The notes: generated from the letters alone by a model not told the origin. A stretch of DNA of 33,582 bases from Candidatus Sigynarchaeum calidifontis (GCA_030587475.2 JAUQYZ020000266.1:1-33582); one strand, 5' to 3'. Shown: positions 5,241 to 24,234, numbered from the stretch's first letter. Numbers and translations: made by a program.

Positions 5241-6527
5241 TCAGCCTTTACGTCCTTTTCCTTTCTTTACCATTACAACGGTTACAATAACGAGACCTGC
5301 TGCCAGCCCTCCTATGAGGATCCATTGAATCAAATCGAAAGGGTCTCCGGTGCTTCCAAGCGGGGCCGGAAATTCAAGCCGGAACATGAAAAACGCCCCC
5401 GTTTCCGATAATGCAACGATGGACTTGCCGGTATCGGAAATTGCACAGTCATTGAACCGTTTTGCTAAAGGGCCTGTGAAATTCAAGAAAACATGTCCTG
5501 ATGTCCCGTTGACGATGTAAAAATTACCCTTCGTGCCCCCGAATATCGCGATCTTGCCATCCAAGGATAAATCGCAGCTATCCCCGTACGCGCTCGTCTG
5601 GATTTCCCATAGCGTCGCGTTGCTATTTCGAGCGAACATGGCCGCGCCGAAAGATAAATACCATGCCGTGAGGAAAATCCTGTTCCCATCCGCTGAAATT
5701 GCCACGTCTATGCAATAATGACAAGCCCTTTTCCATAAAACCGTTCCTGTCCTCGCGTCGAGAACAGCTGCGCTTACATCAGGGCCATTTTCTAAGCACC
5801 CCGCCACGATGGTCGAACCATCCTTGCTGATTGCTATCCTTGTTACAGAATGCGCCAAGATAACGGGAGATGTCCATTTTGGATTTGACGAGATGTTATC
5901 GAAGCATGCAATTGATCCGTTACTGAATCCCACAGCAATCACCGATCCATCACCCGAAATGCAGATGGATTGTGGACTACTGATGATCTTTTGCCATACT
6001 AACCCGCCGTCATGATGGAACAGGGTCACCTCGCCTTGCGTGGCAAAAGCAATAAACTCTCCATTGCTCGAGACTTTCACACCTACGCCAAATCCTGTCG
6101 ACGACGAATAATTCCATAGCGCCGTTGCAGAAGCATTCCCGAAGCATTGTAGTATGCCATTCGGCCGGTTTTCCAGGACCGCCATGATATGGCCGTCGTC
6201 TGAAACCGATGGATATAAATAACCATACACAAATGGACCTGCTGAATGGTTCCATGTCGGGGTCATGGCGCCAACAGGAACGGCCGGAATTTTCCAAAGG
6301 GTTGTCCAATGGATCGCGTTGGTGGAACCAAATTTCGTCGTTAATGCGACATCCCCGTTTCCGGAAATCGCGATGTCGTTTGAATCCGAAACGTAACCGA
6401 TATTCCCTTCACCGATGTAATGAATCACGATAGAATCGGCCGAAGCAGATTGGATTAATCCCATTCCGAGAATAAAACCTAAGGATACAATACAAACCGT
6501 CATTGATCTTATTTTCTTCATGTTCAT
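5241..6527 (-). CDS. Secreted, C-terminally membrane-anchored beta-propeller protein (PQQ/WD-like repeats)
   Basis: Signal peptide (MKKIRS..hydrophobic..SASA), repeated ISxDG..W blades, C-terminal TM helix followed by KKGKGRKG. Start 6527 or 6521. Confidence 0.8.
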   Translation of the reverse strand: MNMKKIRSMTVCIVSLGFILGMGLIQSASADSIVIHYIGEGNIGYVSDSNDIAISGNGDVALTTKFGSTNAIHWTTLWKIPAVPVGAMTPTWNHSAGPFVYGYLYPSVSDDGHIMAVLENRPNGILQCFGNASATALWNYSSSTGFGVGVKVSSNGEFIAFATQGEVTLFHHDGGLVWQKIISSPQSICISGDGSVIAVGFSNGSIACFDNISSNPKWTSPVILAHSVTRIAISKDGSTIVAGCLENGPDVSAAVLDARTGTVLWKRACHYCIDVAISADGNRIFLTAWYLSFGAAMFARNSNATLWEIQTSAYGDSCDLSLDGKIAIFGGTKGNFYIVNGTSGHVFLNFTGPLAKRFNDCAISDTGKSIVALSETGAFFMFRLEFPAPLGSTGDPFDLIQWILIGGLAAGLVIVTVVMVKKGKGRKG

Positions 6528-6761
6528 CACCCTCAGCTCGTTGGATGAGAGTTTCATTCTAATATGGTGGAAATTGAATATATATCTGATTCCAAGGAAG
6601 AAGGTATACTCCCTCCAACATCAATAAGATAAGATTTGTAATCCGGATTGTTGGGCGAGCAACATGAGGGATCGGGAATTGCCTAGATGTTTTGTTTAAG
6701 GCAAAAATATTTGTTGGTGAATCCGGTATCTCCTTCCAGTACTAGATCGATTAGAAGGGAC

Positions 6762-7880
6762 ATGATCCAACAGATCATCTCGGCCATGCAGCGCACGGGC
6801 TGGATAATCATCGATTTCTCCGGCAACGATGCCACGATTCGGATAGTGGGCAACAAGGACGTGGAACAAGTTCTCGAGATCGATGTAAGTGCCAAGTGTT
6901 TCGACTTGATCGCGAAAAATAAAGATATGACCCTTATCATCAAGTATATCGACAACATCGACAATTTTAGCAAAGAAAAATCGGAGGAGTTACTTAACAT
7001 AGCTCACATTTTCAACTCCGTGCCGCTCATCATCGGGGAAAGAAACAGGAACGGCAATCTCGAGAACAATATCTTGTATAACCGGTATCAAATCAACGCG
7101 CTCAATTTCACCACATTTGCGAGCGTCCTAGAGAAGAAGGAGTTTCCTCGCGTCTACAGCCAGCGAGGCGGGTATTTCGTGCAGATAAAAACCAAGGAGT
7201 TCAAGGAACTGCGACAATCCCGAAATTTATCGCTCGCGGACATTGCAAAGAAACTTAAACTCACGCCGAAAGCAGTATATGAATATGAATCGAATAACAT
7301 GAAGACCCGGCTCGCTCATTTCGAGGAAATGGCCCGGATCTTCAAGTTTAGCCAGCAAGAGTTCTTGCGCCAGTTTTCGGAGACGATAGACATCTTCGTG
7401 AAGCTCTACAAGTCCAATTACGAGACGATTCGGGATCTAGTGGGTTTCCAGCAAGAGATCGATCACCGGTTGACCGAGCTCGGGTTCATCACGTACTGGT
7501 TCAACAAGGCACCGATCGACATGTCGTTCGAGGATGCCACGAGCGACCGGGTCATTAATCAAAGCCTCGAGAAGGAGAAACCGCTTGCTGAGTCGAGGAA
7601 CATATTCATCTCGGAGATCTCATCGGTCAAAGAGGCAGGGGCCAGCGACCTCGCGCGAACGATCAAGAACACGGAGAAGAAGCTGGAAAAACACGTGGCC
7701 TTCTTGAAGGAATTTGGCAAGGTATTGGAGACCAAGTGTAACATGGTTGTATTACTCGATGATCAGTTGTTCCAGGATTTGAAACACGTGCACGGCATCC
7801 CCATCATCCATGAACACGAGATACCGTCGAACGCGGAAAAATTGAAAAAGATCATTCTCGATCGAAAGCATACCAGTTGA
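6762..7880 (+). CDS. Archaeal HTH transcriptional regulator, COG1395-like (restriction-endonuclease-like N domain + Cro/C1 HTH)
   Basis: CFDLIAK..LIIK...NID, PLIIGER, VYSQRGGYFVQI, then HTH LRQSRNLSLADIAKKLKLTPKAVYEYE. ATG 6762 follows AGAAGGGA. Confidence 0.8.
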   Translation: MIQQIISAMQRTGWIIIDFSGNDATIRIVGNKDVEQVLEIDVSAKCFDLIAKNKDMTLIIKYIDNIDNFSKEKSEELLNIAHIFNSVPLIIGERNRNGNLENNILYNRYQINALNFTTFASVLEKKEFPRVYSQRGGYFVQIKTKEFKELRQSRNLSLADIAKKLKLTPKAVYEYESNNMKTRLAHFEEMARIFKFSQQEFLRQFSETIDIFVKLYKSNYETIRDLVGFQQEIDHRLTELGFITYWFNKAPIDMSFEDATSDRVINQSLEKEKPLAESRNIFISEISSVKEAGASDLARTIKNTEKKLEKHVAFLKEFGKVLETKCNMVVLLDDQLFQDLKHVHGIPIIHEHEIPSNAEKLKKIILDRKHTS

Positions 7881-8570
7881 GTGCACGTGGAACTGATAGT
7901 GGGCGGTGCTGACGAGGCAGGACGCGGGCCGGTACTCGGCCCGATGGTCGTCTGTGCCGCGTGTTTCCGCGAGGCTGATATACCCAACCTACACGACCAA
8001 GGAGTGACAGATTCGAAGCAGCTTAGCCCGAAGCGGCGGGAGGAACTCTATGAGATCATCACGCGCGCGGCGCTCTGCTATGAACTCGTGGTGCTCTCGC
8101 CCGTGGAAATCAACGAGGGCATGGCGAGCGGAGAGAACTTGAACGATATCGAGGTGGCCGCGTTTGCAAGGGCCATCAATGCCGTGATCCGTCGAGGCCC
8201 CATCCCTGGCAAGATGTGGATCGACGCGGCGGACGTGAAGCCCGAGCGCTTTGGCGAGCGTGTACAAGGCCTGCTCTCGACGCGCGTGGTGGTCAACGCC
8301 AGTCACAAGGCTGATGCCACGGTCACGGCGGTCGGGGCAGCATCGATCCTCGCGAAGGTGACGCGCGACCGGCTCATCCACGAGCTTTCCAAGCAATACG
8401 GAGACATCGGGTCCGGATATCCGTCCGATCCCAAGACCCGTGCATTCTTGAAAAGCTATTACCAGGATCACGGGAAATTCCCACCAATCGTCAGGACGGA
8501 ATGGGAAACGCTGAAGCAGCTCGAGAAAGAGATGGGCATCCTCCCGAAGGGGCAAACGAGGCTGTTCTGA
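7881..8570 (+). CDS. rnhB: Ribonuclease HII
   Basis: GADEAGRGPVLGPMVV, DSKQL, IDA, HKAD, AASILAKVTRD, GSGYPSDP. Confidence 0.97.
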   Translation: MHVELIVGGADEAGRGPVLGPMVVCAACFREADIPNLHDQGVTDSKQLSPKRREELYEIITRAALCYELVVLSPVEINEGMASGENLNDIEVAAFARAINAVIRRGPIPGKMWIDAADVKPERFGERVQGLLSTRVVVNASHKADATVTAVGAASILAKVTRDRLIHELSKQYGDIGSGYPSDPKTRAFLKSYYQDHGKFPPIVRTEWETLKQLEKEMGILPKGQTRLF

Positions 8571-8574
8571 TCCA

Positions 8575-9279
8575 TCATTCCATCTTGCCCGCGATCATCA
8601 CGTGGTCATCGCTGAACGGGGCGATGTCGCGCAAGTCAACGACGTTGCACCCGGCCTTCGTCAGGATCGCCTTCTCCTTCTGGAAGATGATCTCCGGCTC
8701 GATGGTCACGTCGATCGAGCGAGACTTGATGGCAATGTAGAAGGATCCACCTGGCTTGAGATATGTCTGGATGTTGTCGACGAGCAACTTGGATTGCTCG
8801 GGTTGTGCCACGTCCTGGTAGATGAGATCGACTTGCTCCGGAATCAAGGATCGGTACTGTGCCGGCTTCGTCGCGTCGGCAAATATCGGTATGACGTTTT
8901 CCCGGTTCGAGAGTCTCTGCACGAGCTCCCGCAAGCTGCGAGCCGAAAACTCGATCGCGTAGATCCGGCCCGATTTCCCGACGATATCAGACAAGTGGGA
9001 GACCGTCGTGCCGCTCGCGGCGCCGAGGTACAAGATGGACATGCCCTCCTTCAAGTAGTACTCCTTCCCATTTTTGCGGAAATACGCGCATAACTTGCTC
9101 CGGTTCGGGTTCCACTCGCGGTACTCCTCTTGTCCTACCTTGAACAGCCGCTCGCCGTACACGTCCGTGCCTGGAACCTGGTTTTTCGTCCCGATGATCT
9201 CGTTCCCATCCACGGTGATCGTGTAGATGCCCTCGAACTTGCCATGGGCTTTGACGGAATACGAGTCGCTTCTCGACAT
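8575..9279 (-). CDS. flpA: Fibrillarin-like rRNA/tRNA 2'-O-methyltransferase
   Basis: VYGE, YREWNPNRSKL, LYLGAASGTTVSHLSD, YQDVAQP, IKSRSIDVT. Confidence 0.97.
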   Translation of the reverse strand: MSRSDSYSVKAHGKFEGIYTITVDGNEIIGTKNQVPGTDVYGERLFKVGQEEYREWNPNRSKLCAYFRKNGKEYYLKEGMSILYLGAASGTTVSHLSDIVGKSGRIYAIEFSARSLRELVQRLSNRENVIPIFADATKPAQYRSLIPEQVDLIYQDVAQPEQSKLLVDNIQTYLKPGGSFYIAIKSRSIDVTIEPEIIFQKEKAILTKAGCNVVDLRDIAPFSDDHVMIAGKME

Positions 9280-9285
9280 CGACGA

Positions 9286-10818
9286 TCACTCCTTTCCTTG
9301 TCCACGCTTTCCCTTGGGTGGATACTTTCCCCCGGTCCTTCCCCCGCTGCCCTGGTTGAATGACTTGTTTCCGGGACCTGTCGGCTTGTATGGTCGTGGC
9401 CCTCCACCACCCTTTCCCTTTGATGACCATTGGTGGTCGGCGCGGGCGCCGCTTTTCTTGGAGGGCAGTGAGCTTGAACTGCCTTGTCGTTGCTTGAATT
9501 TACCAGGCCTTCGATCGCGCTGCGGCTCGCCTGACCGTGGCTTTCGCTGCCACTGTTCGGTTCGGGCAGATGGGGGGCGCTCCTTCACTTGTGCCGGCTT
9601 GTCAGGATATTTTCTCTGGATTTCCGCGAGCTTGCTGCGGACATCCGCGAGAAGCTCGTCACCGATGTATCGCTTGCTGATTTGATCGACCCGCGCGGCG
9701 ATCGAGATTTTACCAGCGAGCAAACGTGCGATCTTGCCTCGCTGCCAAAATGGGGCGGACCGGACCTCTTTTGCTTGGAAAAGAATCCCATGCTTTGGTG
9801 GCTCGCTATTCGTTTTGATCGAACGAAACAGCGCTTTCTCCGCGCCGAGGACCTGGATCGTCGAGCTTGGCTTCTTTGCCAGTGCTTCGAGCCCGCCCGC
9901 GAGGCAAATCAGCCTGGCGCCGAGTATCGGGCCAACGACGGCCGATAAATTTGGACAAGTTTGTTCCATCAATGATTCGACGTAATTCTCTATTTTTATG
10001 CGTGTCTTGTATAGATCGAGCACGCTGCTGGCAAATGCTTGCACGGTCTTGATATCAAAGGGTGAGAAATCACCACCCATGGATTCCTTGGCACGCTTGA
10101 CCATGATCTCCACTGTCTTGTCTTGCACGGGGCGCAGTGCCTTTATCCGGTCAGGAGAGAATTCTTCCCGCGTGCCAATGTTCGTGATGATTTCGAGGAA
10201 AAACTCGTGATCCGCGACGAGCTGGTCGGTTAACTCGGGGAAATGGTAGCCATACCATTCGCGGATGCGTTCAGAAAATATATTCGTGCTCTTGTTGATA
10301 TCATCGATGGAATTCACGGCTTGCATGATGAGCCGGTCGTTTTGTTCCGAGACGGACTTGATCTGCAGCTTCGTGAGTTCCACGTTGACCGCGCGGTTGA
10401 ATGCATAAAACTCGCCAGCGTTCCACGCGCTCCCCACCTTCTCGAGAAACGACACGATATCTTGCCGGAAGGCGACGCCCGCCCTCGTCGATTTCGCAAG
10501 GAAGAGGCGCCCCGGGACTTTCCCGTCGAGCAGGTTATAGAGAAACTCGTCTTCTACCTCGAGGACGTCCCTGCCAGGCGCTGCCTTCATGTAATCCGCT
10601 ATCTTGACGATGATCTCATCGAGCTCGGTATGGGGTGTCGCCAATTTCAAGGCAAGCATCACGTGTGCGACCGTTTCGGCATCACGCTTCAACTCGTGGC
10701 GGACTACTACATTCCCTTGCTCGTCCGTCGCGGCGACGCCGCACGCGGTGCAAATAAGGGAGAGACCCACGTTTACCAACCATCTGCTTGTTCTGTTTCC
10801 ACTATAAAGGAATGTCAC
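9286..10818 (-). CDS. nop5: Box C/D sRNP protein Nop5 (Nop56/58) with long basic/Gly-rich C-terminal tail
   Basis: ERIREWYGYHFPEL, CPNLSAVVG..LGARLI, PSSTIQVLGAEKALF, PPKHG, RGKIARLLAGK..IAARVD. True start may be GTG 10770. Confidence 0.95.
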   Translation of the reverse strand: MTFLYSGNRTSRWLVNVGLSLICTACGVAATDEQGNVVVRHELKRDAETVAHVMLALKLATPHTELDEIIVKIADYMKAAPGRDVLEVEDEFLYNLLDGKVPGRLFLAKSTRAGVAFRQDIVSFLEKVGSAWNAGEFYAFNRAVNVELTKLQIKSVSEQNDRLIMQAVNSIDDINKSTNIFSERIREWYGYHFPELTDQLVADHEFFLEIITNIGTREEFSPDRIKALRPVQDKTVEIMVKRAKESMGGDFSPFDIKTVQAFASSVLDLYKTRIKIENYVESLMEQTCPNLSAVVGPILGARLICLAGGLEALAKKPSSTIQVLGAEKALFRSIKTNSEPPKHGILFQAKEVRSAPFWQRGKIARLLAGKISIAARVDQISKRYIGDELLADVRSKLAEIQRKYPDKPAQVKERPPSARTEQWQRKPRSGEPQRDRRPGKFKQRQGSSSSLPSKKSGARADHQWSSKGKGGGGPRPYKPTGPGNKSFNQGSGGRTGGKYPPKGKRGQGKE

Positions 10819-10849
10819 TTATATTAACTATGTTTTCGAATGGTGTATC

Positions 10850-11929
10850 ATGCCGAAAGATTGCGTGGGTATCGTCTATTCCCCAAAATACCTGGATCAC
10901 CAGACAGGCTCGCACGTGGAATCGCCGGAACGCCTCGTCGCGACCATGGATCTCATCAAGAGCGAAAAGCTGCTCGAATCGCCCAAGTTCAGGTTGATCG
11001 AGCCGAGGACAGCCACGATCGAAGAGATCAAGATGATACACGACGCGAGCATGATCGAGTACGCCCGCAAGCAGTCGCTCGAGGCGAAAGGCGGCTCTCT
11101 GAAGCTGCTCGATGGTGGCGATACCGTCGTGAGCGAGCGATCTTTCGAAGTAGCCTTGCTCGCGGCCGGCGGGGCGATAACAGCAGCCGATGCCGTCTTG
11201 AGCGGCGAGGTATCGAGCGCTTTCGCCCTGGTTAGACCGCCTGGCCACCATGCGAACGCCAGCCGTTCATCTGGCTTTTGCATCTTCAACAACATGGCCA
11301 TCCTGGCGGAGTATCTCATCAAGCAAAAAGGATTCAAGAGGGTCGGGATCTTCGACATCGACCTGCACCATGGGAACGGCACGTCGGAGATCTTCTACGA
11401 TCGCAACGACGTGCTCTTCTTTAGCAGCCATCAAGATCCCCGAACGCAATATCCCGGCACGGGCTTCGCCTCGGACATCGGTGAAGGGCCGGGCAAGGGC
11501 TACAACATCAACGCCCCCCTCGCCCCCGGCGCGGGCGATGACGTGGTCCAGCTCATCTTCTCGCAGGTCATCAAGCCAGTCTTCGAGCAATACAAGCCCC
11601 AAATCCTGCTCGGTTCGTTCGGCGGCGACGCGCATTATTCGGATCCGCTGTCCGGCTTGTCCTTCACGACGCAAGGATACGGGCATTACGTCGAGGGCTT
11701 CAAGAAGATAGCCGACAAGTGCTGCGATGGAAAGATGGTCATCCTGCTGGAAGGCGGGTATCGTGTCAAGGTGCTGGCACAGAGCATCGTGAACATCTTG
11801 AACGTGCTCGCGGGGCAAGAAATGCCATTCGTGGAAGGCGAGCACGAATCCGGGGAAAGCATCATGGATTACCATATAAACTTGGCCAAGAAGCTGCAAG
11901 AGCACTTGAAACCGTATTGGACGTTTTAA
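10850..11929 (+). CDS. Zn-dependent histone deacetylase family protein (HDAC/AcuC/AphA)
   Basis: HVESPERL, RPPGHHA, SGFCIFNN, DIDLHHGNGT, DAHYSDPL, LEGGY all intact. Confidence 0.95.
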   Translation: MPKDCVGIVYSPKYLDHQTGSHVESPERLVATMDLIKSEKLLESPKFRLIEPRTATIEEIKMIHDASMIEYARKQSLEAKGGSLKLLDGGDTVVSERSFEVALLAAGGAITAADAVLSGEVSSAFALVRPPGHHANASRSSGFCIFNNMAILAEYLIKQKGFKRVGIFDIDLHHGNGTSEIFYDRNDVLFFSSHQDPRTQYPGTGFASDIGEGPGKGYNINAPLAPGAGDDVVQLIFSQVIKPVFEQYKPQILLGSFGGDAHYSDPLSGLSFTTQGYGHYVEGFKKIADKCCDGKMVILLEGGYRVKVLAQSIVNILNVLAGQEMPFVEGEHESGESIMDYHINLAKKLQEHLKPYWTF

Positions 11930-11947: not shown

Positions 11948-13336
11948 TTAGAAGAGATCGACGAGCTTGCTCAGCAGCTTGAGCACCTCCTCTCCTTTCT
12001 CCGTGAGCTTGTAGATCGTGCGGCCTTGTTCATCTTTCGACGTCACGAAACTCTTTTCCTCCATTTGCTTCAAGTGATGGTACACGCTCTGCTTGGTGCA
12101 TTGAACCTCCTTGGAAATGGACGCGTGAATCTTGTACCCGTGCAAACCCGCTTCTCCAGCGTGCTTCAATTGATCCAGGATCTTCAGCCGGAGGTTCATC
12201 TTCGTCCGGACGAACAAGTCCGAGTTGGTCACCCTGCTGATCAAGGCGTCGATGACGTTCGGCGCTTTCAAGCCGGTTCCGGTGAGGATCACGACGCGCT
12301 TCAGGCCCGATTCCCGGTTTTCTCGCTTTTTCAGCGCTGCAAACGCGGCGGCCGTGGCCGGTTCGACAAAAAGGCCTTCTACACGTGCAAGCGTGGAGAT
12401 CGCGCTCGTGATCTCGCCTTCCGTGATCTCCATCTTTTCCCCGCCCGATTCCTTGATGGCGTTTTCCATCAGGTCCCGCTGCGAATGTTTCGATTCCATC
12501 AAGGGCGAGATCCGCGGGCCTTCGGTCGAAAGGCTTGCCCCGATCATTTTCGGCACCGAAGGTATGACCCCGCTCGCGTGGAGATCATCGAATCCTTGCC
12601 ATAGCGAAAACAACGTGCCGCCATTGCCGATAGAAATGTACACCTCGTCCGGGACGACCCCGTCCGCCACGATCTCGTGCGATATCGTGGTTTGCGCCAG
12701 CATCGACAAGGGGTTGAATTCGGCGGTCGCCTGGTAACCCCCCTCCGCCAGCTGGTGCTTGAGGCAGTCGTCCATGCTATCGTTCATCGACGGATACGAA
12801 TCGAACAACAAGCCACCGTACGTCTTCACCTGCGACTTTTTTCCGATGTCGATGTTCCTGTCGCTGAAGATCCTCGCGACGAGACCTGCCCTGGCTGCAT
12901 AAGCAGAAACGGACGCGCCCATGTTCCCCGTGCTGGCACAGAACACCTCCTTGCAATGTAAAATCTTCGCATGGGTGACGAGCAACGATGCGGCTCGATC
13001 CCTGTAGGATCGTGTTGGATTCTGGGACTCGTCCTTAAAATAAACGAGGCTCCCAGACCCAGTTCGGTTCTCGGTGGACTCGACCAGCCTCGTGTTGCCC
13101 TCGCCCATGCTGACGCGTTCCTGGAAAAAAGTGGCTGGAAGCACCCGCTTCAAGCTGTCCCAGAACTGCTGCTTTTCCGCGATGCCAGTATCCCACGACG
13201 ACGTGCCCGGACCTGGCACGCGCCGGATAAAGAGGTTCTTGTCACATGTCGGGCACCTGAACAGGGCGTCCGGCGAGTCGATCCGCTCGCCAGGGAGGAC
13301 GTGGCCATCCCAGCATCGCAACTCGAGTTTCTCCAT
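11948..13336 (-). CDS. Threonine-synthase-like fold-type II PLP-domain protein lacking the Schiff-base Lys, fused to a C-terminal PadR/ArsR-like winged HTH; predicted transcription factor
   Basis: N-terminal Zn ribbon (CWDGH..CPTC), SMGEGNT, NPTRSYRDR (canonical NPTGSFKDR), ASTGNMG, IGNGGT, VEPATA, LTGTGLK; last ~83 aa LRLKILDQL..LHGYKI..TKQSVYHHLKQMEEKSFV..YKLTEKG. Confidence 0.85.
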   Translation of the reverse strand: MEKLELRCWDGHVLPGERIDSPDALFRCPTCDKNLFIRRVPGPGTSSWDTGIAEKQQFWDSLKRVLPATFFQERVSMGEGNTRLVESTENRTGSGSLVYFKDESQNPTRSYRDRAASLLVTHAKILHCKEVFCASTGNMGASVSAYAARAGLVARIFSDRNIDIGKKSQVKTYGGLLFDSYPSMNDSMDDCLKHQLAEGGYQATAEFNPLSMLAQTTISHEIVADGVVPDEVYISIGNGGTLFSLWQGFDDLHASGVIPSVPKMIGASLSTEGPRISPLMESKHSQRDLMENAIKESGGEKMEITEGEITSAISTLARVEGLFVEPATAAAFAALKKRENRESGLKRVVILTGTGLKAPNVIDALISRVTNSDLFVRTKMNLRLKILDQLKHAGEAGLHGYKIHASISKEVQCTKQSVYHHLKQMEEKSFVTSKDEQGRTIYKLTEKGEEVLKLLSKLVDLF

Positions 13337-13391
13337 CTATATCCGCCGTTGATCGTGGCAAGAGGGATTTTTCAGCCCTTGCAAACACGTT

Positions 13392-14117
13392 TTAATAGAT
13401 AAACAAGACTTGTGCCTTTTGCACGGCGTGGTACACGGGTATGGCGACGATGATGCCCACCAGCGACTGTACCACGTTCCACGGCAGGCTCGCGGCGGCC
13501 CCAGCAGCCAACAACACGAACGCGTCGTAGACAAAATACCCGCCGAACATGACCACGCCACCCGCGAGCAGCGATAGAACCATGTAATATATCGGGATCT
13601 TGCCGCGCAAGATGGACACGAAAACGACGACGATGAAAAAGGAGCCGATGACGATCCAGAGGATCGTGGCACCCGGGTCGTAATTGACCCCGATGATGAT
13701 GACCGCCGCGGCGATCAAGAAACCGCTCATGAGCACGCGCATCGTGGTCTTCCCGCTGCGCAGCTTGTCCTCGGTGATGCTCGATTTGAAGTGCTTGAAC
13801 AGTGTCCCGGCGATGAATCCCTCGACGAACTTGAGGACGAGGGTCGCGGGGATGTATTGCGGGGCCAGGATGATATCGCCGAGCATGGCGCCGATGCTTC
13901 CTGCCACCCCGGCCAACAAGGCTCCCAGGGGAACCCTGGTCCCGCGTGCAGTGATGGGGCCCAATAACAGCGCGGCAAGGTATATCACCGCCTCGCCAAG
14001 ATTGAAATAACCGGCTGGAAGCGGTGGTGCAAGAACGACCGTGGCGACCGTGGTCAAGGCCGTGAAAGTGGCGGCGAATGCGATCCACAAGGTCACCTTT
14101 TTTGGATTTTCTGGCAC
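13392..14117 (-). CDS. ECF transporter substrate-specific S component
   Basis: TALTTVAT..P..GYFNLGEAVIYLAALLLGP, GSIGAMLGDII..YIPATLVLKFVEGFIAG, SLPWNVVQSLVG; highly hydrophobic. GTG start. Confidence 0.88.
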   Translation of the reverse strand: MPENPKKVTLWIAFAATFTALTTVATVVLAPPLPAGYFNLGEAVIYLAALLLGPITARGTRVPLGALLAGVAGSIGAMLGDIILAPQYIPATLVLKFVEGFIAGTLFKHFKSSITEDKLRSGKTTMRVLMSGFLIAAAVIIIGVNYDPGATILWIVIGSFFIVVVFVSILRGKIPIYYMVLSLLAGGVVMFGGYFVYDAFVLLAAGAAASLPWNVVQSLVGIIVAIPVYHAVQKAQVLFIY

Positions 14118-14135
14118 GTCGAATCACATCGAGCA

Positions 14136-14177
14136 CTAGTCAACTCTCCGTTGACTAGTCAAAAACAAATTGACTAG
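14136..14177. promoter_or_regulatory. Two interlocked palindromic operators CTAGTCAA-N7-TTGACTAG (14136-14158 and 14155-14177)
   Basis: ctagtcaa-ctctccg-ttgactag and ctagtcaa-aaacaaa-ttgactag: identical arms and spacer length, different spacer sequence. They lie between the TATA box and the ECF start codon. Confidence 0.85.
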
Positions 14178-14181
14178 AGCC

Positions 14182-14190
14182 CTTATAAAG
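14182..14190. promoter_or_regulatory. TATA box, possibly bidirectional (ECF operon and divergent UroD-family gene)
   Basis: CTTATAAAG reads TTTATAA on the minus strand and TTATAAA on the plus strand; it is the only TATA-like element in the 105-bp divergent gap. Confidence 0.6.
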
Positions 14191-14222
14191 CTTCCCGCTG
14201 CCGGTCTGCCAAGGTACAACAC

Positions 14223-15335
14223 ATGAAAGCTCACGAGCGCATCTGGAAGGCATTGTGCCACGAGGAACCCGACCGGGTTCCCACGTTCACCCAATCCATC
14301 GAGGACCCGTTCGTCCGGCGGTTTGACGAGCAAGTCGGCATCGAAGACGAGGCGGGGCTGTTCCCCGACATGACCATGGACATGATCCTGGCCCGTCAGC
14401 TTGGTTTCGATTCCAAGTGGATCCACTTGCAAGGGGCCTCGCCGCCCGCGAGGGATTACCCGGCGGAGTTACCACCCCTGCCCGAGGACCAGTGGGCGGG
14501 CAAGTCAGGCCAGATCCACGTGCGCAGCAAGGATGGCTCGAAATCGTGGTATTATGACGGGGCACTCAAGACCCCCGAACTGGTAAAGGCATGGATCCCG
14601 TACGTGAAAGATTTCAACATACCCGATGCCAATTATTACAGGCACATCAAGAAAACGTGGGACGTGGGCTGTGCCAAGGACATCGTCCCGATCCCCACGG
14701 CCGGCGCCCCGACCATGGCCACGTGGGCATCCATCGGCATGCGCAGGTTCTCGTACATGACGCGCAAGCATCCCGAGCTCGTCCACGGGCTCATCAACGC
14801 GTGGTGCGACGTGACCATCGAGGAGCACAAGTGCATTTTCGAGGCTGGTATCCCGTACGTGTTCATCTGCGACGACCACGCGCAGAAAGAGCGGCTCATG
14901 ATGAGCCCGGCGGACTGGGAGCGGTTCGTGGAGCCTGTCTACAAGCGGCTCGCCAACAACGCCCACAAGCACGGCGCCAAGTTCCTCGTCCACACCGACG
15001 GGAACTTGAACGAGTCGTTCCCCGGCATGTACCGCGCTGGCGTCGACGCCGCGGAACCGCTCGAGTACGAGGCCGGCATGCGACTGAAACCGCTCAAGGA
15101 GAAGTTCGGCGACAAGATCACGCTGATCGGGAACGTGCCCTCGTCGGAAGCACTGTGCCTGGGCTCGGTCGAGTTCACGGTCGAGATCACGAAGCAATGC
15201 ATCAAGGACGCCGCGGCGGGTGGCGGGTTGATCCTCGCCCCGGGTGCCAACATCCTCGCCACGGCCAAGATCGAGAATGTCAAGGCGCTCATCGAGACCA
15301 ATAAAAAGTACGGGACGTATCCCATAAAAATTTAA
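14223..15335 (+). CDS. Uroporphyrinogen decarboxylase / MtaA-CmuA methyltransferase superfamily protein
   Basis: ERIWKALCHEEPDRVP, ICDDHAQK..MMSP..W, VHTDGN, PLEYEAGM..LKEKFGDKITLIGNV, GGGLILAPG. Confidence 0.85.
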   Translation: MKAHERIWKALCHEEPDRVPTFTQSIEDPFVRRFDEQVGIEDEAGLFPDMTMDMILARQLGFDSKWIHLQGASPPARDYPAELPPLPEDQWAGKSGQIHVRSKDGSKSWYYDGALKTPELVKAWIPYVKDFNIPDANYYRHIKKTWDVGCAKDIVPIPTAGAPTMATWASIGMRRFSYMTRKHPELVHGLINAWCDVTIEEHKCIFEAGIPYVFICDDHAQKERLMMSPADWERFVEPVYKRLANNAHKHGAKFLVHTDGNLNESFPGMYRAGVDAAEPLEYEAGMRLKPLKEKFGDKITLIGNVPSSEALCLGSVEFTVEITKQCIKDAAAGGGLILAPGANILATAKIENVKALIETNKKYGTYPIKI

Positions 15336-15363
15336 GATGAAATGCAAGAAATAATCGGTTTTC

Positions 15364-16509
15364 CTACACGTTCAAGGGGTATTTACCCCATTTCTTCACG
15401 GCTTCTATCATTGCCAAGCCGTTCTCGAACTTGCACGCGTCCGTGAGGTCCGTGCACGGGCTCACGATGTATCCACCGCCGTGCCCCGCATCGCGGATCA
15501 TCTGCTTGACCGCGGCTTCCACGTCGGCCGGCGTGCCGAAGGGGAGCAGCCGGGAGCAATCGACGTTGCCGATGAGCGTGAGCTTGTCGCCAAAGGTTTC
15601 CTTAAGATGCTTGAGGTCCATGCCCGCGCCGGGTTCCAGGCTCTCCACGCCGTCGAAGCCAGCTTCGATGAGGCCTGGGAACAAGGGCTCGGTGAAGCCA
15701 TCCGAATGGAAGAAGACCTTCTTGTCCTTGCTCACCTTGTGGATTTCGCCGACGATTTGCTTGTAGAGCGGGATGATGAGTTCACGGTGCGCCTTCGGGG
15801 AGATGTACGTGCTGCCCTTGTACGCTTGGTCGTCGGCCAGGCTGTAAACGTCGTAATCCAGCTTCGCCATGACCTTGGCGCTCTCGATCGCGTGTTTCGC
15901 GTAGGCCTCGTGGATCCGCTTGAGCTTTTGGGGTTTCTTGATGAGCAACCTTGAGTATAGTTCCGGCGTCATGCCCTCGAAGACGCCCTCGAACACGCCT
16001 CCGCCGGCGCCGCCCACCGGCACGAAGCGCCCGTCGCCGACGGTTTGCTTGATGTGTTCGTTCATGTTCTTGATGACGTCGTCGGAAGGAGGCTTGTATT
16101 CGATGTCGAACCAGTAGTGCTCGTACCACTCGTCGACCGCCTCCTCGGTCGTCAAGTACGGGCCGATGTACCAGCTATAGGGATGACCATTCATGGTCGT
16201 GGTCTTGTGCAAACGGCCAGTCAAGTCGATGGACACGCCCGGTTCCTTGATGGACGGCAGTGGGTATTCGTTAAGACGATTAACAGTGGGCGATGCGCCG
16301 AGTCCCGCGGCGCCCCACGACATGTCGAAGCCCATTCTCTTGTAAAGGGTAAAGTCTTTTCCCAGGAAAATCACGTCCAGATCATCCTCGTCAGCCCACG
16401 ATTTTTCCATCCGATCGTAGAACACGGGCATGATCGACTGGACAAAAATCGGCACCCGGTCGGGCTCCTCGTGATCGAACGCCGCGAGGACGCGTTCTCT
16501 GCTGTTCAT
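15364..16509 (-). CDS. Second UroD/MtaA superfamily protein, convergent paralog
   Basis: MNSRERVLAAFDHEEPDRVP, LADDQAYK..ISP, FHSDG, LEPGAGMD..LKETFGDKLTLIGNVD, GGGYIVSP. Confidence 0.87.
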   Translation of the reverse strand: MNSRERVLAAFDHEEPDRVPIFVQSIMPVFYDRMEKSWADEDDLDVIFLGKDFTLYKRMGFDMSWGAAGLGASPTVNRLNEYPLPSIKEPGVSIDLTGRLHKTTTMNGHPYSWYIGPYLTTEEAVDEWYEHYWFDIEYKPPSDDVIKNMNEHIKQTVGDGRFVPVGGAGGGVFEGVFEGMTPELYSRLLIKKPQKLKRIHEAYAKHAIESAKVMAKLDYDVYSLADDQAYKGSTYISPKAHRELIIPLYKQIVGEIHKVSKDKKVFFHSDGFTEPLFPGLIEAGFDGVESLEPGAGMDLKHLKETFGDKLTLIGNVDCSRLLPFGTPADVEAAVKQMIRDAGHGGGYIVSPCTDLTDACKFENGLAMIEAVKKWGKYPLNV

Positions 16510-16564
16510 GATGTACCCTCGATCGGTCGCAATCAATAAAAACGGCATCGAAAGAGAATTGAAT

Positions 16565-22782: not shown

Positions 22783-24234
22783 GTGAGGGGATTATTCATC
22801 ACCGAAAAGAAAACCCCGGCAAAGGACGAAGCCAAGCGAACGAAATTGGAGACGATGGGATCGAAAAAGGCCAGGATCCAGGCCGAGCAAGAAGCGGCGG
22901 AAAAAGAAAAGAAGAGAGAGAGGGAAGAGCTTTTTGCCATGAAAAGGGGAGAGATCATGGCAAATTTAAAGCGACAAGAAGAAAGCGCGTCGCTCGTCCA
23001 TTCCAACTACATATTTTCCGATAGTACCCTCGTTGGTCATTTTGGACCGGTCATGGCATGCAAGTTTTCGCCAGACCGCTCGACCATCCTCTCCGGATCG
23101 AAGGATGGGTCTTTAATGCTTTGGGATGCCAAGTCAGGGAACGAGATACGAGCCATGAAAGGCCACGATTTCAAGGTCAATGCTTGTGCATTCTCTCCCG
23201 ATGGGACCCTCGCGGTGTCCGGGTCAGACGACTATTCATTGATCGTCTGGGACGTGGGAACAGGAAAACCGCTCCGAGCACTAGCCGGCCATGCCGATGC
23301 CGTGACCGGGTGCGCGTTTTCGCCGGATGGCTCCAGGGTCATTTCATCCTCGATAGACGGGTTTATCTCGATCTGGAACGCCCGGAAGGGCGGCCTCGTG
23401 CGGAGCTCGAAATATCTCTCGCCCATTATGGCATGCACTTGTTCCTCGGACGGCACGCGCATCGTTGCCATGACGGTCGACAAGAAGGTAAGAATAATAG
23501 AGACCGAAAAGCTGAAGGAACTTCTATCCTTCACCGGCCACCTTGAACACGGGTGGAATTGCGCGTTTTCACCAGACGGGAAAACGATCTTGACGACCGG
23601 CTTGGACAAGTACTTGAAACTGTGGGATGCGGCCTCCGGGAAGCTCATGCGAACCTTCACGGGCCATCAATCCGGGATCCTTTCATGCGATTTCTCCCCG
23701 GACGGGAAATGGATCGTCTCCGGCGCAATGGATAACACGTTGGGATTGTGGGACGTGGAAACAGGACAAAAATGGCGCACGCTCGTCGGACATTTTGGCT
23801 CGGTCAATGCTTGTGCCTTCTCGCCGGACGGGACGAGGGTTGTCTCGGCGTCGGAGGACTGGACGGTGAAGGTCTGGGATGTCACGAAGAAGCCGGTGCA
23901 ACCGGGTTCCCCCCGACCGACGCCGGTACCACGACCGGCCATGCAACCCGAGACGGCGCCCGTGCCGGCGGAATCGGTCACGAGAGAGAAACTCGTGAAG
24001 GCGTTCAAGGTGTCCACCCGCATCAAGATCCAGATGCTACAAACCTATCTCCGAATGGACGACGAGTCCTTCACGGACAAGTTGTTCGATTGGGCTGCCG
24101 AGTTCGGGTTTAAAATCGACGGCGACACCATCGTCATCGGAACTGCCGACATCGACGGGTTCGTGGCCCGGCTCGATGAATATTTCGCGGAATGGGACAA
24201 GAAGGTCAAGAAAAAGATAGGCAAGGCCAAGTGA
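22783..24234 (+). CDS. WD40-repeat protein with N-terminal coiled coil, Pro-rich linker and C-terminal small domain
   Basis: Seven repeats of GH...V..CAFSPDG....SGS.D..L..WD; charged N-terminal helix. Start GTG 22783 or ATG 22855. Confidence 0.92.
   Translation: MRGLFITEKKTPAKDEAKRTKLETMGSKKARIQAEQEAAEKEKKREREELFAMKRGEIMANLKRQEESASLVHSNYIFSDSTLVGHFGPVMACKFSPDRSTILSGSKDGSLMLWDAKSGNEIRAMKGHDFKVNACAFSPDGTLAVSGSDDYSLIVWDVGTGKPLRALAGHADAVTGCAFSPDGSRVISSSIDGFISIWNARKGGLVRSSKYLSPIMACTCSSDGTRIVAMTVDKKVRIIETEKLKELLSFTGHLEHGWNCAFSPDGKTILTTGLDKYLKLWDAASGKLMRTFTGHQSGILSCDFSPDGKWIVSGAMDNTLGLWDVETGQKWRTLVGHFGSVNACAFSPDGTRVVSASEDWTVKVWDVTKKPVQPGSPRPTPVPRPAMQPETAPVPAESVTREKLVKAFKVSTRIKIQMLQTYLRMDDESFTDKLFDWAAEFGFKIDGDTIVIGTADIDGFVARLDEYFAEWDKKVKKKIGKAK

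Follow-up and report, generated by a model that had tools for sequence, protein, structure and literature searches.

What function should be assigned to a protein that is labelled threonine synthase, ends in a winged helix, and is encoded behind a membrane-protein gene preceded by two palindromes? The question is raised by an operon of the Asgard archaeon Candidatus Sigynarchaeum calidifontis, located on the minus strand (14189–11948) of the 33,582-nt stretch of DNA that was analyzed (GCA_030587475.2 JAUQYZ020000266.1:1-33582; hereafter the window). Protein comparison placed the source close to Candidatus Sigynarchaeum, 85% identity being reached by the nearest named protein. Because the catalytic lysine has been lost, a DNA-binding domain has been gained, and the palindrome is met again in many archaea ahead of genes for the uptake or synthesis of vitamin B6, the gene very probably encodes a regulator of B6 genes, of a type undescribed for Archaea.

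The elements follow one another on the minus strand in the order TATA box, two overlapping spaced palindromes, Shine-Dalgarno-like element, 241-aa membrane protein, and 462-aa protein. The TATA-like box of the operon, TTTATAA, was located at 14183–14189, with purine-rich BRE-like bases just 5′ of it (approximately 14190–14197). Putative operator 1, the TATA-proximal palindrome with 8-bp arms and a 7-bp spacer, spans 14155–14177, and putative operator 2, the same palindrome, lies within the 5′ leader at 14136–14158; both were identified from the sequence and by motif scan, and neither is assigned to a strand. A Shine-Dalgarno-like element, inferred at 14122–14127, stands 5 nt ahead of the GTG start of the ECF S component gene (13392–14117; PF07155, Pfam E 1.5e-16). 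After a gap of exactly 55 nt comes the regulator gene (11948–13336), whose product combines an N-terminal Cys-bearing ribbon, a ThrC-like fold-type II domain, and a PadR-type winged helix. This co-oriented arrangement of TATA box, tandem palindrome, S gene, and ThrC-like fusion had been reported in a preliminary description of the locus; every part was found in its place, and the arrangement was confirmed as real. A sigma-70 promoter scan found none, the sigma-70 model not being applicable here.

The large domain of the 462-aa protein (residues 75–351, 12284–13114; PALP PF00291, E 5e-48) grouped with threonine synthases in both sequence and structure searches (model pLDDT 85.7), and the top Foldseek matches were all ThrC (E 1e-23, 30% identity). 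Compared with ThrC of the Thermus/Aquifex/Bacillus type (PDB 2ZSJ, 6NMX, 1UIM), the fold, the PLP-pocket motifs, and the predicted dimer interface are the same, whereas the catalytic lysine and the substrate-phosphate arginine are replaced and a winged helix is added. The Schiff-base lysine of PTGSFKDR aligns to Arg112 (codon at 13001–13003), which is not a sequencing error, since arginine occupies this position in all 18 of the closest relatives. In a library of representatives at 50% identity, the lysine was lost from 76 of 78 HTH-fused proteins (present in 2) and retained in 56 of 70 unfused representatives. Among 150 non-redundant fusions, the position held Arg (44%), Leu, Ile, Val, or Lys (4%); the 100% lysine of the ThrC comparison column is a product of selection.

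The cofactor-cradling residues, namely N138, the G237–G239 phosphate loop, E325–P326, T352, and the GLK motif (T352-G-x-G-L-K), were conserved across the 150 fusions. The substrate of ThrC is held by the STGN-loop threonine and by the arginine in the segment NSVNPYR; across the fusions these two residues vary or are lost. In the Sigynarchaeum protein, T136 of the substrate-carboxylate loop was kept, and the conserved arginine of NSVNPYR was replaced (S211). The residue pattern is that of a binding pocket kept without catalysis, ligand binding and loss of activity being inferences. Judged by its catalytic residue, the protein would not be a threonine synthase, although the absence of activity is likewise inferred.

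The winged helix-turn-helix occupies residues 390–453 (11978–12169; Pfam PadR, E 4e-8). Its GY pair and the segment (A/S)VY(Q/H)HL are conserved in the family, and the recognition helix carries an invariant tyrosine. Domain hits in Pfam were limited to the PALP and wHTH families, with no GntR and no riboflavin-kinase or ThiN sensor domain.

The description of the protein as a dead PLP enzyme held for Arg112 of this protein but not for every family member. One Lokiarchaeia clade carries lysine at position 112 and was nested among arginine-bearing relatives (support 95), which suggests that lysine returned there secondarily and that PLP is still bound in the pocket. The tree was a quick one, with deep branches weakly resolved and the Sigynarchaeum clade on a long branch. 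As a separate observation, a second pseudoenzyme of this fold is encoded in the same genome (L215:1801-3069; G000 C32), a 422-aa ThrC-like protein that lacks a winged helix and has isoleucine where the PLP lysine would stand.

In modelling of the homodimer, a score of 0.76 was obtained against 0.00 for the best control, the runs agreed in at least 68% of contacts, and pLDDT was at least 84. Among solved pairs, 20 of 30 attain the mark applied to this score, as does 1 of 23 single chains. The model thus predicts pairing through the PALP domains, and its pass is probably owed to likeness to solved ThrC dimers.

Databases name the relatives of the regulator threonine synthase. The protein missed the ThrC equivalog cut-offs (NF004170, 195 vs. 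421; TIGR00260, 94 vs. 167), and NCBIfam NF004170/PRK05638 spans both domains, so that it models the Thermococcales branch of the fusion under the name threonine synthase. A widespread mis-annotation is corrected here. The names given in these sources would favour a working threonine synthase with an incidental DNA-binding tail, with the palindrome serving some other factor or the divergent UroD/MtaA-like gene. The TATA box, which reads as TATA on the plus strand too (14183–14191), points the same way: the divergent gene, whose start at 14223 is 33 nt away, may also be served by it. This explanation is scarcely credible, since the Schiff-base lysine is missing, a canonical lysine-bearing ThrC is encoded elsewhere in the genome (locus L008), and the operator tracks the S gene whatever gene lies upstream and depends on the presence of the regulator in the genome. 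As to the divergent side itself, two convergent UroD/MtaA-like genes were observed at 14223–16548, the first sharing the bidirectional box with the S operon, and UroD/MtaA-like genes flank the S-regulator operon in most relatives.

The palindrome is CTAGTCAA-N7-TTGACTAG, present in two copies (14177–14155 and 14158–14136) that share 4 bp and give a 19-bp period. Perfect copies numbered two in the 4.99-Mb assembly, both at this locus. With a lineage weight matrix built from related loci, the two sites scored 30.0 and 28.6, and the next site in the genome scored 15.6; the genome motif scan gave no further regulon members above background. When the 105-nt intergenic region was shuffled 20,000 times, a palindrome with arms of at least 8 arose in 0.9% of cases. 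The tandem site was kept ahead of the orthologous operon in eight related loci, and an AT-rich TATA-like box lay 0–6 nt ahead of the operator in seven. One strong site per genome was found in the five Bathyarchaeia and five Lokiarchaeia genomes scanned.

The form of the operator was lineage-specific. It reads TAGTATAG-N6-CTATACTA in Bathyarchaeia, TATAAG-N6-CTTATA in Lokiarchaeia family f2, TATACAAG-N6-CTTGTATA in Odin/Heimdall-type genomes, and TTTCAAG-N6-CTTGAAA in Thermococcus. In the Sigynarchaeum-lineage clade it is TAG(T/G)CAA-N7-TTG(A/C)CTA, with 7-bp half-sites and a 7-bp spacer; this operator is 1 bp shorter than that of the family and nearly always tandem with a 19-bp period. Extra motif matches in genome G210 were rejected as regulon members, being ArsR-type operators beside an ArsR gene (L157:1015-1040 and 1500-1540); such operators mimic the Lokiarchaeia form and are a source of false positives in motif scans. 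A second fusion branch (loci L196–L212), with Ile or Leu at the lysine position, was observed with a variant operator of GG-N6-CC core before S or pdxS, and some genomes hold both branches of the fusion.

The PALP-wHTH fusion is widespread, occurring in Asgard archaea, Bathyarchaeia, Desulfurococcales, Thermococcales, and others. In one genome scan, in which the query was a lone Thermococcus protein, all matches were bacterial ThrC. The proposed check on the linkage of orthologs to ECF S genes came out in favour: among 69 non-redundant loci with both flanks, 43 adjoin an S gene, 8 pdxS/pdxT (identified by NCBIfam above cut-off), and 1 an AIR-synthase-family gene, which leaves 17 without any such neighbour. 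Gene order varied, with S before the regulator at the Sigynarchaeum locus, the regulator before S in Bathyarchaeia, convergent genes in Lokiarchaeia family f2, and divergent genes in Thorarchaeia-type loci; S-regulator gaps in relatives ranged from −4 to 81 nt.

As gene order varies, the palindrome stays with the promoter of S (or pdxS) and not with that of the regulator. Where S lies downstream of the regulator, none of 77 regulator-upstream regions scored; only this count is informative, the scoring of 73 of 77 S promoters being circular because they were training data. At locus L138 of the Sigynarchaeum-lineage clade, where the regulator leads the operon, the tandem operator precedes the regulator; tandem duplicated S genes were also seen behind the regulator there (L138:7382-9104). 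The operator of the S gene was retained whether the gene upstream was pelota, a co-oriented UroD gene, or an LRR gene. The autoregulation proposed earlier agrees with the operator that precedes the S-regulator operon here, but it is lineage-specific, as in Bathyarchaeia the operator follows the regulator and precedes S.

Conservation of the motif upstream of orthologous operons was confirmed, and the motif also precedes pdxS. For this comparison, pdxS promoters were scored with a weight matrix trained solely on 138 S-gene promoters. Where the genome carries the fused regulator, a site was found ahead of pdxS in 17 of 24 promoters (shuffle p ≤ 0.02), and three more bore weaker, visibly palindromic sites. 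Among the four negative promoters, one case has a site before an S-pdxS-pdxT operon (score 19.6) and another has pdxS behind the regulator. In genomes without a detected fusion, no site preceded pdxS in any of 23 promoters (best score 2.3, lowest p 0.11). The genomes are kin and the counts overstate independence; the pdxS link occurs in about seven lineages.

Sites in trans were present in the Jordarchaeia-type family f11 and in Thermococcus, where one genome has the same palindrome before pdxS and before the S gene, with the regulator elsewhere. Several site-bearing pdxS genes lie far from the regulator gene, which points to a factor able to diffuse. Bathyarchaeon L023 falls within a group of S-linked relatives (quick tree, support 99), and there the order regulator-operator-pdxS-pdxT replaces the regulator-operator-S of sister taxa, with the operator unchanged. 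In family f2, pdxS was confined to genus g3 (4/4 genomes), where the regulator is missing (0/4); the 64 remaining genomes had no pdxS. For the Sigynarchaeum clade, the B6 link rests on homology and on the S gene, because no pdxS-bearing genome of the lineage is available.

The same kind of test bears on whether the sensor might instead respond to O-phosphohomoserine or threonine, as a regulator of threonine/homoserine metabolism, with the S component serving to take up an amino acid. In favour of this, the sensor is paralogous to ThrC, and in about ten Bathyarchaeia loci canonical thrC, often together with homoserine dehydrogenase, is the divergent neighbour. At none of the ten loci with a neighbouring canonical thrC, however, was an operator found ahead of thrC (best score −3.8), while the S promoters there scored 21–29; this genome's own thrC also had no site. 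With the operator sitting at pdxS and the NSVNPYR arginine replaced (S211), a threonine signal is very unlikely, and the amino-acid phosphate once suggested as an alternative ligand has lost its support.

A B6 signal was also supported by the closest solved relative of the S component. A profile of 15 archaeal S-component sequences gave a single significant match in the PDB, 4HZU chain S (E 9.7e-23); the S protein searched as a single sequence gave no match, only the family profile doing so. Chain S of 4HZU is HmpT/PdxU2 of Lactobacillus brevis, a protein found by mass spectrometry to yield pyridoxamine (PMC4860826). Both proteins belong to PF07155, and four of six HmpT pocket residues (E41, Y120, N140, Q143) align to identical residues of the S component (E42, Y194, N214, Q217). 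H84 and Q87 align to K96 and E99, and the archaeal protein further differs in two extra predicted helices and a 12-residue insertion. From these comparisons the S component is predicted to be a B6 vitamer importer of the HmpT/PdxU2 type, substrate binding and transport being inferred. The B6-sensing system first proposed for this locus thus draws support from the operator before pdxS and from this match, with ligand and DNA binding inferred.

Import of another vitamin precursor, such as hydroxymethylpyrimidine or riboflavin, with the regulator of this lineage re-tuned to it, appears quite improbable. In its favour, PF07155 is named riboflavin S component in Pfam, HmpT was originally assigned to hydroxymethylpyrimidine (PMC4860826), and the Sigynarchaeum clade lies on a long branch with its own operator, two pocket residues differing from HmpT. 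Yet K96/E99 are invariant in the whole archaeal S family, including members sharing a regulon with pdxS; PdxU and PdxU2 are both PF07155 (PMC9997740), and the PLP pocket is conserved in the Sigynarchaeum regulator.

Under the B6 reading, supply would depend on an ECF A-A′-T module, which is encoded on another contig of this genome. pdxS was absent from this genome (89% complete) and from three family members (63–81% complete). No recognisable PdxK gene was found in this genome, the PdxK/ThiD search giving only partial PfkB-type matches, and the step from imported vitamer to PLP is therefore unexplained here.

A gene of the AIR-synthase family (PurM fold) was considered as a B6 kinase and is no more than a weak lead, unsupported outside Bathyarchaeia. 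At about 50 loci of Bathyarchaeia it comes next after S (or pdxT), and at a few it is transcribed divergently from the regulator (L131:9225-10232; L023:8904-9911; L185:352-1377). Thirty Asgard AIR-synthase-family loci had no S gene, pdx gene, or operator; the gene had unrelated neighbours in three plasmid records and was present in prototrophs and auxotrophs alike. In the Sigynarchaeum genome, an AIR-synthase-family gene was also observed behind the gene for a second S component of PF07155 (L360:3271-5062; G000 C62), without an operator of the B6-regulator family. This pair recalls CblT-CblS, a pairing of importer and kinase.

The preferred reading, given a probability of roughly 85%, is repression by a dimer that responds to a phosphorylated B6 vitamer and switches off uptake of the vitamin, as here, or its synthesis, as in other archaea; the ligand, the binding to DNA, and the direction of control are inferences, with no binding, transport, or expression data behind them. 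Two subunits would pair through the threonine-synthase-type interface, so that each palindrome meets a pair of winged helices, and the tandem site could accommodate two dimers. The phosphorylated vitamer is expected to sit non-covalently in the pocket, because arginine cannot form an aldimine while the glycine phosphate cup is intact; PLP is the most likely candidate, at about even odds, followed by PMP or PNP, for which the expectation is lower. With B6 plentiful, the liganded protein, having the B6 phosphate as co-repressor, would bind just past the TATA box and block transcription of the S gene and the regulator. Initiation would be the step blocked, since operator 1 starts 5 nt beyond the TATA box and extends over the expected transcription start. 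With B6 scarce, the regulator would release the DNA, and the S component would dock on the shared ECF A-A′-T module and import pyridoxamine, pyridoxal, or pyridoxine. The regulator, inferred to be co-transcribed with S, would thereby limit itself. In this genome, the regulon is inferred to comprise the S-regulator operon alone, the same family controlling pdxS-pdxT in other archaea.

The mixed modes of the MocR factors that run bacterial PdxR regulons leave room for the same regulator and operator working by opposite logic or on another signal, through binding of DNA when unliganded, activation, or sensing of an amino acid-PLP adduct. RbkR has been proposed to activate in its unliganded form (PMC5397151), and T136 of the substrate-carboxylate loop is kept in the regulator. 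This possibility is nevertheless held to be improbable: the operator lies downstream of or overlaps the TATA box in every lineage examined, which is the position of an archaeal repressor, and ligand-free repression would close uptake when the vitamin is scarce.

Repression by the liganded dimer, as preferred here, can be set beside known systems. B6 regulation is known in Bacteria through MocR/PdxR, and MocR, which joins an N-terminal GntR wHTH to a fold-type I aminotransferase-like domain, was reported absent from Archaea (PMC5320631). The two designs are alike in using a PLP-enzyme fold as a sensor fused to a winged helix (PMC5320631), and both have pdxST and pdxU-type transporter genes in the regulon, the operator having been found before such genes here. 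In contrast, the archaeal regulator has a fold-type II (ThrC) sensor, a C-terminal PadR-type wHTH, and no Schiff-base lysine, so that MocR membership fails on both domains; it is an independent invention.

ThiR consists of an HTH and ThiN, RbkR of an HTH and riboflavin kinase, and ECF S components import vitamins. The regulator resembles RbkR (PMC5397151) and ThiR in fusing a winged helix to a sensor derived from a cofactor-binding enzyme, and in having lineage-variable palindromic operators before synthesis and ECF S genes of one vitamin; it differs in vitamin, sensor domain, and domain order (HTH C-terminal). The analogy drawn in the preliminary description stands for design but not for mechanism, because RbkR is a still-active kinase and a proposed activator in unliganded form (PMC5397151). 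The regulator is a new family within a known kind of regulator.

No description of a PALP-wHTH B6 regulator was found in the full-text literature; an earlier mention in computational work remains possible, since the scope excluded subscription journals and curated databases of regulons. It is considered likely that the family serves TACK, Asgard, and Thermococcales archaea as a general B6 regulator, detecting a B6 phosphate with no Schiff base formed, and that it is the first case of a transcription factor derived from a fold-type II PLP enzyme. Operator spacing and the lysine position (Arg, hydrophobic, or Lys regained) would then be lineage-tuned, and the operator would identify unannotated archaeal B6 importers and mark most Asgard as B6 auxotrophs. 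B6 transporters are poorly known (PMC9997740), and a candidate archaeal B6 regulator is supplied here together with its operator and its importer. The proposal is directly testable, because Thermococcus carries the regulator plus operator-bearing pdxS and S genes. As pdxS was found in only 44 of the 301 Asgard genomes searched, uptake through the S component may matter for culturing.

Other genes of the window were also noted. Downstream of the regulator, at 6687–11929, lies a block conserved throughout the lineage, with an HTH/PD-(D/E)XK gene and genes for RNase HII, fibrillarin, Nop5 with a long low-complexity basic tail, and a histone-deacetylase-family protein. Two beta-propeller proteins, one PQQ-like (5241–6557) and one with strong multi-repeat WD40 character (22783–24234), are typical eukaryote-like proteins of Asgard archaea.
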